This document shows, piece by piece, positions 1-6,000 of a stretch of 7,493 nt of DNA. Each line of letters opens with the position of its first letter. Position 1 is the first letter of the stretch. This stretch comes from a virus (lineage: Duplodnaviria; Heunggongvirae; Uroviricota; Caudoviricetes). The position numbers are program-made. Location of the stretch: positions 1-7,493 of IMG/VR virus record IMGVR_UViG_2698536509_000001; one strand, written 5' to 3'.

Positions 1-3000
1 CAATGCGCTTACTGATGCGGAATTACGCCGTAAGGCCGCAGATGAGCTTGTCCATATGACTGCGAGAATTAACCGTGGTGAGGCGATCCCTGAACCAGTA
101 AAACAACTTCCTGTCATGGGCGGCAGACCTCTAAATCGTGCACAGGCTCTGGCGAAGATCGCAGAAATTAAAGCTAAGTTCGGACTGAAAGGAGCAAGTG
201 TATGACGGGCAAAGAGGCAATTATTCATTACCTCGGGACGCATAAGAACTTCTGTGCACAGGACGTTTCCGCGGTAACAGGCGCAACCGTAACCAGCATA
301 AATCAGGCTGCGGCTAAAATGGCGCGGGCAGGAATCCTGATCATTGATGGTAAGGTCTGGCGAACGGTGTATTACCGGTTTGCTACCAGGGAAGAACGGG
401 AAGGAACGGTGAGCACGAACCTGATTTTTAAGGAGTGTCGCCAGAGTGCAGCGATGAAACGGGTATTGGCGGTATATGGAGTTAAAAGATGACCATCTAC
501 ATCACTGAGCTAATAACAGGCCTGCTGGTAATCGCAGGCCTTTTTATTTGGGGGAGAGTAAATCGTGGCTGAGTTGATTTTCTCTGCATTGAGGCTTCTC
601 GGTGCTATGTGGATGGTGGCGACGTTCATTGTGGTTGCTGGCTGTTTTGTCCGGTTGGTAGGCGAAGGTAAAGACCTGGTGGGTGTGCTTTTCGGTAGCA
701 TTCTCCTGTGGGTGATTATCGGTGTTGCGCCTGTCGCTGTAGCAAAAATGGCGTGGCGTTTTGTGAGTTGAACTGAGGGTAAGTACCGATGGACGAATCA
801 AGAAAGCAGTTTGAAGAATGGTTTGAAAATTACACCGGATGTGATCCTAAAAATAAAATATACGCCAATATGGTTGAGATGTATTGGCAAGCGTGGCAGG
901 CATCGCGAGCAGCTTTTGAAATTGAGCTGCAAAAGCCAAAGAAAGGCCCACTTCCCGGTGATTATCACATTGGCTATGACACAGGTGCAGAATCACAATA
1001 CGAAAGCGATGTAGAGGCCATCCGCACTGCTGGAGTCAAAGTGAAGGAGTGAGTATGAGCGCATACGAAGAAATCATGTTAGCCCTGCGATTCTTTTTCG
1101 GTGTGGAAGAAGATGAAAACGTAAATGAGATTATCGGGCAAGACCATGACCAGATAGGGACTATTGCAGCTGCACTTGACGATTACAGGAGCGTAAATGG
1201 TGAGGAAACTAACGTTTGAACTAAGAAGCCCCATCCATCAGCAGAACGCCATTCAAGCTATCCAGCAAATTCTTCCAGACCCAACCAAACCAATCGTAGT
1301 AACCATTCAGGAACGCAACCGCAGCTTAGACCAAAACAGGAAGCTATGGGCCTGCTTAGGTGACGTCTCTCGTCAGGTTGAATGGCATGGTCGCTGGCTG
1401 GATGCAGAAAGCTGGAAGTGTGTGTTTACCGCAGCATTAAAGCAGCAGGACGTTGTTCCTAACCTTGCCGGGAATGGCTTTGTGGTAATAGGCCAGTCAA
1501 CCAGCAGGATGCGTGTAAGCGAATTTGCGGAGCTATTAGAGCTTATACAGGCATTCGGTACAGAGCGTGGCGTTAAGTGGTCAGACGAAGCTCGACTGGC
1601 TCTCGAATGGAAAGCGCGATGGGGAGATCGGGCAGCATGACTATCAAATCAAATACGCCAGCACACGACAAGGACTGCTGGCAAACGCCGCTTTGGCTTT
1701 TTGATGCACTGGATATTGAGTTTGGATTCTGGCTGGATTCGGCAGCGAGCGACAAAAATGCTCTGTGTGCTCACTGGCTAACTGAGGCCGACGACGCGCT
1801 AAATTCTGAGTGGATAAGCCACGGGGCAATCTGGAATAACCCACCGTACAGCAATATCAGGCCGTGGGTGGAAAAAGCCGCTGAGCAGTGCATACAACAG
1901 CGACAGACGGTAGTGATGCTTGTGCCAGAGGATATGTCAGTCGGATGGTTCAGCAAGGCTCTGGAGAGTGTCGACGAAGTTCGCATTATCACTGATGGAC
2001 GGATTAATTTTATCGAACCATCGACGGGGCTGGAGAAGAAGGGAAACAGCAAAGGCTCCATGCTGCTGATTTGGCGACCGTTCATCAGTCCTCGACGGAT
2101 GTTTACTACCGTATCCAAAGCGGCATTGATGGCGATCGGGCAGGGCGTCAGAAGGGCGGCATGAGGCGACAGCGAAGAAGTATCACCGACATCATCTGCG
2201 AAAACTGCAAATACCTTCCAACGAAACGCTCCAGAAATAAACGCAAGCCAATCCCAAAAGAATCTGACGTAAAAACCTTCAACTACACGGCTCATCTGTG
2301 GGATATCCGGTGGCTAAGACATCGTGCGAGGAAAACAAGGTGATTGACGCGATGATTTATTCGGGGCTATATTCCTCACGCGCCAGCAAAATCTGGCGTC
2401 GGGATTAGCACCCCGGATGTTTACGGAGCGATATGAGACGCGCCAGCGTCTTTTTTTCATATCGTTTGCACAGTCACATTCGCGATTTATGGCGGGCTGT
2501 GTGGGGGAGCCGAAAGGCTCGCCGGTTTCCGTACCCGGTAGTGCTAACCCCGCACAGTTCGCCACCACGATGATTAGCACCTGACGGTGGCGATAATGTC
2601 CAAATGTACGGAGTTATCGTTATGACCACTCAAATCTCTGTTGAAACTCTCTCCCCGATCACCCATAACCAGATTCCTGTTATTACCACCGAACTTTTGG
2701 CGCAGCTTTACGGCACTGAGCCGGTGCGTATTCGCCAGAATCATCATGAGAACAAAGTACGCTTCGTTGAAGGGAAACACTTTTTCAAAGTTGTTGGTAA
2801 TGACCTTAAAGAATTGCGGGTCGCTTTAAACTACTCACAAAATCCAGTTTCACCCAAAGCCCGCTCCCTCATCCTCTGGACAGAACGAGGCGCAGCACGC
2901 CACGCCAAAATGCTCGAAACCGATCAGGCATGGGATGTGTTCGAAAAACTGGAAGACTGCTATTTCAGCCAGTGCGAGAAAAATACTGGCAAACAAGAGA

Positions 3001-6000
3001 AGAAGCTCAACGGGCTTTCCGCAAAAGAAACAGACAGCCTTGTATGGCTGTGGGATTATGCCAACCGCTCACAGGCATTGTTCCGTGAGTTGTATCCCGC
3101 ATTAAAACTGATTCAGTCTGGCTATTCCGGCATATGCCACGACTACGGCTATGAGTTCTCGTATATCATCGGGAGGGCGAGGGGCGTTTTAATTAATCAC
3201 ACGCGGGATATAGATATTTATGAGCCTGACGGGCCGACGAACCTTCTGGCATGGGAAAGGCTTAAGAACAAAGAGTTGCCGCCTTCACTGCATCGCTACT
3301 GACAATTGACAACTTAACAAACCCAGCTTCGGCTGGGTTTTTTATTGCTGAATTTTCAATGTGAGAGGACATGACAATGAATGAGCTGATAAATAGCAAT
3401 GCCATCAAAATGACAAGCATTGAAATCGCTGAGTTGGTGGGAAGCCAACACGGTAATGTCAGAATATCAATAGAACGTCTGGCAAAGCGTGGGGTGATTC
3501 AACTTCCTTCAATGCAAAAAGTTGAAAATAAACAAGCAATTAGCCCTAACAAATTCACAAGCGTGTATATATTCGAAGGCGAACAAGGTAAGCGAGACAG
3601 CATTATTGTCGTCGCTCAGTTGTCGCCGGAATTCACCGCTCGCCTTGTTGACCGCTGGCGAGAACTCGAAGGGGCAACCGCGAAAATACCACAAACCTTT
3701 TCTGAGGCATTGCGCCTTGCGGCCGACCTTGAAGACCAGAAGGCTGAACTGGAGAAACAGCTTGCTCTCGCAGCACCTAAAGTTGAGTTTGCCGATCGAG
3801 TTGGCGAGGCCAGCGGAATTTTGATTGGAAACTTTGCAAAGGTTGTTGGTATTGGTCCAAACAAACTGTTTGCGTGGATGCGCGATCACAAAATCCTTAT
3901 TGCTTCAGGTGCCCGGCGCAATGTGCCAATGCAGGAATATATGGATCGCGGCTATTTCACAGTGAAAGAAACAGCGGTCAATACAAATCACGGAATACAG
4001 ATATCGTTCACCACAAAAATCACCGGGCGTGGTCAACAGTGGCTGACAAGAAAGCTGCTAGATAACGGAATGCTTAAAGTAACAGGGGAGGCTGCTTAAT
4101 GGCTAAACCAGCGCGAAGGAAATGCAAAATCTGTAAGGAATGGTTTCACCCGGCATTCTCAAATCAGTGGTGGTGCAGCCCGGAACACGGAACTAAATTA
4201 GCGCTCGAACGACGAAATAAAGAACGCGAAAAGGCGGAAAAAACAGCAGAGAAGAAACGACGACGAGAGGAGCAGAAACAGAAAGATAAAATTAAGATTC
4301 GAAAACTCGCCTTAAAGCCCCGCAGTTACTGGATTAAACAAGCCCAACAAGCCGTAAACGCCTTCATCAGAGAAAGAGACCGCGACTTACCATGTATCTC
4401 GTGCGGAACGCTCACGTCTGCTCAGTGGGATGCCGGACATTACCGGACAACTGCTGCGGCACCTCAACTCCGATTTGATGAACGCAATATTCACAAGCAA
4501 TGCGTGGTGTGCAACCAACATAAAAGCGGAAATCTCGTTCCGTATCGCGTCGAACTGATTAACCGCATCGGGCAGGAAGCAGTAGACGAAATCGAATCAA
4601 ACCATAACCGCCATCGCTGGACTATCGAAGAGTGCAAGGCGATCAAGGCAGGGTACCAACAGAAACTCAAAGACCTGCGAAACAGCAGAAGTGAGGCCGC
4701 ATGACGTTCACCGTAAAAACCATTCCTGACATGCTCCTTGAGGCATATGGAAATCAGTCCGAGGTAGCCCGAATACTGAACTGCAATCGTGCCACAGTCA
4801 GAAAATACATTGGCGATAAAGAAGGGAAAAAGCACGCCGTCGTCAATGGCGTCCTTATGGTTCATCGCGGATGGGGTAAAGATACTGATGCGTGATATCC
4901 GGCAGGTTCTTGAGCGCTGGGGGGCATGGGCGGCAAATAACCATGAGGATGTTACATGGTCGCCCATTGCTGCCGGATTTAAGGGACTGATCCCCGAAAA
5001 AGTAAAATCACGTCCACAGTGTTGTGACGATGACGCGATGATTATATGCGGGTGTATGGCTCGCCTTAACAGGAACAACAGCGATCTGCATGACTTGCTG
5101 GTTGATTATTACGTGTTGGGGGAGACGTTCATGGCGCTGGCACGGAAACATGGGTGCTCTGACACCTGTATAGGTAAACGCCTTCACAAAGCGGAGGGGA
5201 TTGTTGAAGGCATGCTGATGATGCTGGGAGTGAGGCTTGAGATGGATCGGTATGTTGAGCGTGAATTGCCGGGAGGGAGAACCTCTGTATTTTATCAGCG
5301 AAAAAATAGTTTACGATCGTAAAAATCTGCATATCATGATAAGAGTGGTTACATTGCCACGCTGCTTAACCCGCCGATGCGCGGGTTTTTTTGTACCCAG
5401 AATCCTGTGAGCTATACGGAAAGTACACAGAAAGGAAGGTGCGACCACAATTAATAACAAAATCTTAAAAATTGCACATGGCACTATTAGTTTTCTAAAT
5501 ATTGTGTATTTTTTGTATTGCAGGATGACCCTGTAACGAAGTTTGCGTAACAGCATTTTGCTCTACGAGTTTGCCAGCCTCCCCCAGTGGCTGGCTTTTT
5601 TATGTCCGTAACATCCTGTGTATCAATAAATGTTGTTATCTACGTACGTCAAGTAGTCGCATGAGATCTGACCAGATATGTTAAGGTTGCAGCTCTCTTT
5701 GAATATGATTATCATTTTCATTACGTTATTGTTACGTTTATCCGGTGCGCCGTAAAACGCCGTCCTTCAGGGCGTGGAGGATGTCAAGAATATAGTTATC
5801 GTATGGTGCTCAAGGAGTATTGTGTAATATGAAAATAATTATTTTTAGAGTGCTAACTTTTTTCTTTGTTATCTTTTCAGTTAATGTGGTGGCGAAGGAA
5901 TTTACCTTAGACTTCTCGACTGCAAAGACGTATGTAGATTCGCTGAATGTCATTCGCTCTGCAATAGGTACTCCATTACAGACTATTTCATCAGGAGGTA

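Follow-up and report, generated by a model that had tools for sequence, protein, structure and literature searches.

The window analyzed here, positions 1 to 7,493 of the IMG/VR virus record IMGVR_UViG_2698536509_000001 and thus 7,493 nucleotides (nt) long, is the nin-to-stx segment of a lambdoid Shiga toxin (Stx) 1a prophage. The gene in question, ant, is an intact open reading frame (ORF) of 226 codons on the + strand (2622-3302). An original prediction, made from the DNA alone, had described a stand-alone gene at these positions where lambda has ninF. The gene is indeed a self-contained unit between ninE and ninG, though this interval, which equals the ninF position of lambda, holds both ant and its neighbor roi. 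Gene coordinates combine the ORF list and Pfam matches with the RefSeq annotation of Escherichia coli 2013C-4974 (NZ_CP027587.1), which carries the identical sequence. The start codon at 2622 and the N-terminal peptide are kept in 8/8 loci from four host genera, and the RefSeq start is identical. An in-frame ATG at 2604 was ruled out as the start of ant, being unconserved in the same eight loci in which ATG 2622 is invariant.

The encoded protein consists of two domains. An ORF6N domain spans amino acids 12-97 (nt 2655-2912; Pfam E = 3.9e-20), in agreement with the phage DNA-binding module that had been predicted for the N-terminus. The C-terminal 110 or so amino acids had been reported to match nothing recognizable, which proved incorrect: amino acids 127-198 (nt 3000-3215) form a P22_AR_C domain (PF10548; Pfam E = 1.3e-23, 83.3 bits vs. 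a cutoff of 22.4), and amino acids 123-226 (nt 2988-3299; 104 amino acids) are 82.7% identical to the C-terminus of P22 Ant (tblastn, X01916.1). Nor is this an uncharacterized accessory gene. The protein matches the family phrog_377 ('anti-repressor Ant') from end to end (protein 1-226, profile 1-213 of 213, E = 1.8e-85), the counterpart in E. coli 2013C-4974 (100% DNA identity) is listed in RefSeq as 'phage antirepressor Ant' (WP_000211430.1), and the gene is also annotated as ant in the phages VT2-Sakai and Phi24B. Because its N-terminal half is homologous to AnrP of Gifsy-1 and its C-terminal half to P22 Ant, the window Ant combines, on the basis of sequence homology, the N-terminal domain type of one characterized antirepressor with the C-terminal domain of another. 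We therefore regard it as a probable two-domain antirepressor (ORF6N plus P22_AR_C) of the domain-swapping Bro network. Among the functions that had been proposed for the gene, the antirepressor option is thus supported by Ant-family homology over the whole protein.

Ant proteins of this type are widespread. Among 5.8 billion proteins searched, 6404 homologues were found, and the best 120 of these all combine ORF6N with P22_AR_C, come from E. coli, Shigella and Salmonella, and bear the names Ant, P22AR-C-domain protein or ORF6N-domain protein. Among the matches listed, forms of 226 amino acids with 88-96% identity were present on hundreds of contigs. Sequence related to the locus was found in 1442 of 5426 complete E. 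coli genomes (about a quarter), at up to six places per genome, and a survey of 279 curated Stx-phage genomes found Ant in 126 of them (PMC8136144). An AlphaFold2 model, built from a 21-sequence alignment with homologues that were all at least 86% identical, had a mean predicted local distance difference test (pLDDT) value of 39.6 and a predicted template modeling (pTM) score of 0.28, values too low for the fold to be usable. The sequence search of the PDB for Ant yielded no significant relative, the top match being syncytin-1 (E = 0.016), which we take as chance, and the search of the ant and roi proteins against the NCBIfam hidden Markov models gave no match.

Upstream of ant, a structured leader with a terminator had been predicted, and we could resolve it into RNA families of Rfam that lie on the + strand between ninE and ant. 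These are c4-a1b1 (RF03163; 2367-2419, 49.8 bits, above the gathering threshold), isrK (RF01394; 2380-2456, 75.9 bits vs. a gathering threshold of 50), which ends in its own terminator (stem 2435-2452 plus U tract), and the C4 antisense RNA (RF01695; 2485-2569, 78 bits vs. 45, full model length). The C4 RNA folds into a long closing stem and two hairpins with a minimum free energy of -49 kcal/mol, leaving the segments a' and b' unpaired: b' (TCCGTAC, 2528-2534) in the loop of hairpin 2 and a' (GTGCTAA, 2541-2547) in the unpaired stretch after this hairpin. Both segments have exact complements of 6-7 nt twice, once in isrK and once downstream of C4. Within isrK, the complement of a' is a1 (TTAGCAC, 2405-2411), located in a hairpin loop, and that of b' is b1 (TACGGA, 2422-2427). 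On the 3' side of C4, a' is matched by a2 (TTAGCAC, 2574-2580) and b' by b2 (GTACGGA, 2606-2612 on the + strand, extended by the G at 2613 as a G-U wobble). The b2 site overlaps the Shine-Dalgarno sequence of ant (GGAG, 2610-2613), which lies 8 nt 5' of the ATG.

The leader is preceded by a promoter of the sigma-70 type on the + strand (2344-2373), consisting of TTGACG (-35), an 18-nt spacer and TATATT (-10), with 10/12 matches in a consensus scan. It ends 7 nt 5' of isrK, and transcription is predicted to start near 2380, the first base of isrK. Eight loci, among them phages of E. coli, Salmonella (Gifsy-1), Hafnia and Hamiltonella (APSE-8), show no variation in the elements TTGAC and TATA.T. 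On the other side of the gene, an intrinsic terminator (+ strand, 3319-3347, with the hairpin at 3319-3340) consists of a 9-bp stem, AAACCCAGC-TTCG-GCTGGGTTT, followed by a T tract. With a free energy of -14.9 kcal/mol and an identical or nearly identical counterpart after ant in five loci (L002, L004, L005 and L006 among them), it bears out the downstream terminator that had been predicted. The terminator scan as a whole was at chance level (3 sites vs. 2.7 expected from shuffles), and each hairpin on the + strand was therefore judged on its Rfam match, as for the upstream one (2435-2452), which is the terminator of the isrK match, or on its conservation, as for the downstream one. Terminators in a nin region are not surprising, because the nin region of lambda is defined by terminators that N overrides.

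The C4 pairings covary across the 12 phage loci examined. In all of the ten further phage loci that were scanned, isrK is followed by C4, and four of the ten also reach the c4-a1b1 threshold; the trio of isrK, c4-a1b1 and C4 is likewise present in Phi24B and Gifsy-1. The a' and b' sequences vary among phages, and the a1/a2 and b1/b2 sites change correspondingly. In an alignment of eight sequences, a':a2 and a1:a' form standard pairs in 56 of 56 cells (100%), with compensatory changes at four of the seven positions, vs. 14-50% paired cells in slid controls, for which the partners were shifted by 1-3 columns. Since b' could not be aligned in register, it was compared with the leader by the longest exact complement, which averaged 7.9 nt in cognate and 3.9 nt in non-cognate combinations (11 loci). 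Phage YYZ-2008 has a' in common with the window and differs in b'. Records of APSE phages already carry annotations for isrK, C4, a' and b', there preceding a BRO-N gene.

Two further elements of the leader deserve mention. The 3' strand of the C4 closing stem, TCGCCACC, can alternatively pair with GGTGGCGA (2586-2593), its exact 8-nt complement, forming a hairpin on the + strand at 2559-2593 (local fold -17.5 kcal/mol) with a2 in the loop. An equivalent pair exists in most other loci, with C/T and G/A changes occurring in step (GGTGGTGA opposite the stem sequence TCACCACC). As long as the transcript is unprocessed, this hairpin could compete with the base of the C4 stem, and it may be part of an alternative-structure switch. 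The second element is an ORF of 31 codons (2489-2584, + strand) that starts inside the 5' end of C4, stops 37 nt before the ATG of ant, and is the positional counterpart of orf45 in Gifsy-1. Other loci have counterparts of 3 to 64 amino acids, and in four loci the frame is still open after 100 codons. Conserved coding is improbable for this ORF, whose unconserved peptide looks like a by-product of the RNA structure. Translational coupling of the orf45 type was accordingly rejected for the window: with a reading frame of unconserved length that ends 37 nt short of ant, a coupling by overlap cannot operate here.

Variants of the module were observed in other phages. In the Stx2a prophage of E. 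coli O121 RM8352 (L002), as an example of O121-type Stx2a phages, a truncated ORF6N pseudogene (3269-3631 of L002) comes after the isrK/C4 leader; next are a second structured RNA, scoring as sRNA-Xcc1 (3777-3860; 75.7 bits), and then a full-length ant (3900-4574). The arrangement amounts to a duplication of the module in tandem, which has decayed in part and stands under another RNA family. The best match in the phage database to the 297-nt leader of the window was found in the Actinobacillus phage vB_Apl-pPE4 (PP818812.1, 15553-15848; 96.3% identity over the full length). The host given for this phage in its deposited record is Actinobacillus pleuropneumoniae, which is unexpected for a leader that otherwise occurs in Stx phages of E. 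coli.

The remaining genes of the window lie on both sides of ant. On the 5' side of ant lie ninB (1200-1640), a gene for a Dam-type methyltransferase (1637-2164) and ninE (2161-2343). On its 3' side lie a gene for a Rha/KilAC protein (3377-4099), named roi in other Stx phages, ninG (4099-4704), ninH (4701-4895), Q (4888-5322), stx1A (5829-6776) and stx1B (6786-7055). The roi product is itself a protein of the Bro network with an ANT/KilAC domain (Pfam E = 1e-32); its score for Phage_pRha, 26.6, is below the Pfam cutoff of 29.9. Thus ant and roi are two adjoining genes of antirepressor families with a terminator between them, and APSE phages show the equivalent order isrK-C4-BRO-Rha. Just 3' of stx1B, a full-length match to the small RNA (sRNA) STnc100 was detected (7134-7347, + strand; 190.7 bits vs. 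a gathering threshold of 47), followed on the - strand by a match to AgvB (anti-GcvB) right at the threshold (7349-7408; 56.6 vs. 56), which is overlapped by a weaker match to AsxR (46.8 vs. 63). The source prophage encodes a LexA-family CI (WP_001274756.1). Its genes for the replicative helicase and the exonuclease are split by IS3-family insertions (L001, 1-2649, and L014, 3853-5714, of the source genome), and what remains of the helicase pseudogene at its C-terminal end makes up the first 490 or so bases of the window (1-492). The source prophage may therefore be replication-defective.

Taken together, we consider it likely that ant of this Stx1a prophage encodes a two-domain antirepressor and comes as a package together with a promoter of its own, an sRNA of the isrK type, an antisense RNA of the C4 type and a terminator. 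We are less confident about the individual steps of the mechanism than about this overall interpretation. We posit that promoter, IsrK, C4, ant and terminator form an autonomous secondary-immunity unit. Transcription from the promoter at 2344-2373 would produce isrK, with most transcripts ending at the isrK terminator and read-through carrying C4 and ant. C4, probably excised from the read-through RNA, would pair through a' and b' with a2 and b2 of the ant leader. In P1, C4 is excised from its precursor by RNase P. With b2 covering the Shine-Dalgarno sequence, ant would stay untranslated in the lysogen. When abundant, the short IsrK, with its a1 and b1 sites, might in turn pair with C4 or its precursor and so free the ribosome-binding site of ant. 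After induction, C4 could also be outpaced by N-antiterminated transcripts that read through from PR. Ant would then bind the LexA-family CI non-covalently, so that derepression would be reinforced or triggered and Q, and subsequently stx1 and the late genes, would be expressed faster.

For antirepressor activity, the effect on induction, repression by C4 and activation by IsrK, this proposal draws on the literature on P22 Ant and AnrP, Phi24B, P1 and Gifsy-1. As summarized in PMC3064807, P22 Ant binds and inactivates both P22 c2 and lambda CI. Expression of AnrP raises the transcripts of the antQ operon and induces the Gifsy-1 prophage (PMC4825925). In Phi24B, whose ant is weakly expressed in uninduced lysogens, deletion of ant reduced the late-promoter signal (pR'-lux) after norfloxacin to ~27-56% of the wild type, and complementation restored it to 64-82%. 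The c4 RNA of P1 and P7 is cited as blocking the synthesis of the antirepressor (Citron and Schuster, 1990, cited in PMC7313666 and PMC8198154). In Gifsy-1, read-through from the isrK promoter past the isrK terminator yields an isrK-orf45-anrP mRNA that is translationally silent. Providing short IsrK in trans increases the translation of anrP over 100-fold via translation of orf45, and the orf45 region gives rise to a stable processed RNA, STnc1160 (PMC4825925). By analogy, the window Ant may bind the CI of its own prophage, and C4 and IsrK may act as they do in P1 and Gifsy-1.

Several points weigh against this interpretation. The effect of the ant deletion on the induction of Phi24B was partial, and superinfection was unaffected. 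The authors of the Gifsy-1 study attribute the action of IsrK to remodeling of the long mRNA and not to titration of a free C4-like RNA, and co-expression of STnc1160, which corresponds to the C4 region, left the toxicity of IsrK unrelieved (PMC4825925). Each of the two characterized relatives covers one half of the protein, AnrP sharing only the N-terminal and P22 Ant only the C-terminal domain with the window Ant, and either domain could carry the antirepressor activity. Direct binding to CI by proteins with the ORF6N plus P22_AR_C architecture was not found in the literature examined. The icd-like gene of P1 is missing from the window, and so is the orf45 coupling of Gifsy-1 (the counterpart has 31 amino acids and ends 37 nt before the ATG), for which reason the route of activation by IsrK may differ from that in Gifsy-1. 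Finally, given the IS3 insertions in the helicase and exonuclease genes, the ant module may be of little consequence in the source strain.

Some of these points would also suit a different role for the protein, namely that of a sequence-specific DNA-binding repressor or activator that acts through ORF6N and has inherited the name Ant from P22 without being functionally equivalent. ORF6N belongs to a superfamily of KilA-N/Bro-N-like DNA-binding domains that occur in diverse roles within the domain-swapping Bro network; BRO proteins bind DNA (PMC7313666), a Bro-network member of the Vibrio satellite PLE is a repressor (PMC10111431), and CI binding has, as stated above, not been found reported for this architecture. 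We nevertheless consider a purely DNA-binding regulator unlikely. Over its C-terminal 104 amino acids the protein shares 82.7% identity with P22 Ant, for which repressor binding has been established biochemically, the control by a C4 RNA is that of the bona fide antirepressor of P1, and the slower and weaker derepression of the Phi24B ant mutant fits an antirepressor.

The moron label given to the gene in the original prediction was apt in so far as the unit possesses a conserved promoter and a terminator of its own. A moron-type gene in the strict sense would rely on its own promoter for expression in the prophage and benefit the lysogen by superinfection exclusion, anti-defense or abortive infection, and both the layout of the unit and the weak expression of Phi24B ant in uninduced lysogens would be compatible with that. 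Moreover, the ORF6N part (2622-2950) weakly matches three PADLOC models of the candidate defense system PDC-S05 (E = 1e-5 to 7e-3). Even the best of these values is far weaker than the Ant-family match (E = 1.8e-85), and the superinfection-exclusion and anti-defense functions that had been suggested find no support in it. Translation of ant appears to be built for a block in the lysogen, with C4 placed over the Shine-Dalgarno sequence; the Gifsy-1 operon is transcribed with anrP left untranslated, and deletion of ant in Phi24B had no effect on superinfection. A benefit to the lysogen is hence very improbable, and we view the locus as a regulatory (immunity) module of the phage and not as lysogenic-conversion cargo. 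Equally improbable is an inert remnant in a decaying prophage, intact by recent descent and without consequence in the strain, as the IS3 elements in the helicase and exonuclease genes and the truncated first ORF6N copy behind isrK/C4 in O121 Stx2a phages might suggest, because ORF, Shine-Dalgarno sequence, promoter, all six pairing sites and terminator are intact, 226-amino-acid forms with 88-96% identity recur on hundreds of contigs, and about a quarter of the complete E. coli genomes carry sequence related to the locus.

The antirepressor module is a known feature in the sense that its components are recorded in Pfam, PHROGs, Rfam or GenBank annotation and that a close homologue has been studied genetically. 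In the literature searched, we found no study of isrK/C4 control of ant in an Stx phage. The practical relevance lies in the ability of antirepressors to trigger or accelerate prophage induction, which here drives the Q-dependent transcription of stx1. Provided that the IsrK/C4 switch operates as in Gifsy-1 and P1, more Shiga toxin could be released, independently of DNA damage, in response to environmental signals that raise IsrK, a link from IsrK to toxin that we did not find addressed for Stx phages in the same literature. The sequences a' and b', with their matching sites in IsrK and the leader, fall into discrete specificity classes that recombine independently, as the comparison with YYZ-2008 illustrates. 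More speculatively, they could constitute an RNA cross-talk network in polylysogenic enterohemorrhagic E. coli, in which the antirepressor of a given prophage is turned on or off by IsrK or C4 from a different one. We regard such cross-talk as possible but doubtful; if true, Stx-phage induction and the release of toxin would have a route that is gated by RNA and independent of RecA.

Among known systems, the closest are the Ant modules of other Stx phages, which share with the window the ORF6N plus P22_AR_C architecture and the isrK/C4 leader. Ant of VT2-Sakai/Sp5 (NP_050534.1) is 99% identical to the window Ant apart from an indel of 18 amino acids, and the gene, named ant there as well, stands in the order ninE-orf34-ant-roi-ninG. 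The 18-amino-acid insert of VT2-Sakai Ant, a repeat of the LRVTLSNSQNLQPSLRGL or LRVTLSNSQN type, lies inside ORF6N (window 2805-2830 compared with L004) and is absent from the window Ant, Phi24B Ant and AnrP. The C4 specificities of the two phages differ, with a' GTGCTAA and b' TCCGTAC in the window vs. a' ACGCCAA and b' GGTTTC in Sakai. Phi24B Ant (ADN68426.1) is 82% identical to the window Ant, is annotated as ORF6N-like with a P22 AR C-terminal domain, and shows the same gene order as the window, ninE-ant-roi-ninG.

P22 Ant (immI; CAA25991.1) resembles the window Ant in its P22_AR_C C-terminus and in being part of a secondary immunity unit apart from the main repressor region. It differs in its N-terminus, which is P22_AR_N (PF10547) in a protein of 300 amino acids, as opposed to ORF6N in the 226 amino acids of the window Ant. 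It also differs in its control, for which the immI record annotates the repressors Mnt and Arc where the window has the isrK and C4 RNAs, and in its location, the window ant lying in the nin region of a lambdoid Stx phage.

The layout of promoter, isrK, C4-like RNA (STnc1160) and leader is shared with the isrK-orf45-anrP-isrJ operon of Gifsy-1 (Hershko-Shalev et al., 2016; PMC4825925). AnrP (STM2616) is 68% identical to the window Ant over 127 N-terminal aligned positions (E = 3e-56), with the first 27 residues being identical, whereas its C-terminus is different and shorter and lacks P22_AR_C (187 amino acids in total). The ATG of orf45, at +107 of isrK, falls inside the 5' end of the C4 match, from which it follows that STnc1160 corresponds to the C4-like RNA. 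While orf45 encodes 45 amino acids and overlaps anrP by 4 nt, its counterpart in the window encodes 31 and is uncoupled. The sRNA isrJ, present in Gifsy-1, had no Rfam match in the window at E <= 1, and the module lies upstream of Q, in the nin region, in the window and downstream of Q in Gifsy-1.

The immI regions of P1 and P7 (c4-icd-ant1/2; Citron and Schuster, 1990), which we compared through Rfam families and papers citing that study (PMC7313666 and PMC8198154) and not through the P1 sequence, have in common with the window a C4 that is co-transcribed upstream of the antirepressor gene. They also share the a'/b' pair with a1/b1 upstream and a2/b2 downstream, b2 being located at the ribosome-binding site, and the phage-specific nature of these sequences. 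The window differs from P1 in that no icd lies between C4 and ant, the sole intervening ORF being the unconserved one of 31 codons that overlaps C4. Unlike in P1/P7, the a1/b1 segment of the window has its own terminator, which makes it a discrete isrK sRNA, and the domain combination of the window Ant differs from that of P1/P7 Ant. Judged by its sequence features, the window locus is the Stx-phage version of the antirepressor modules known as immI in P1 and isrK-anrP in Gifsy-1.

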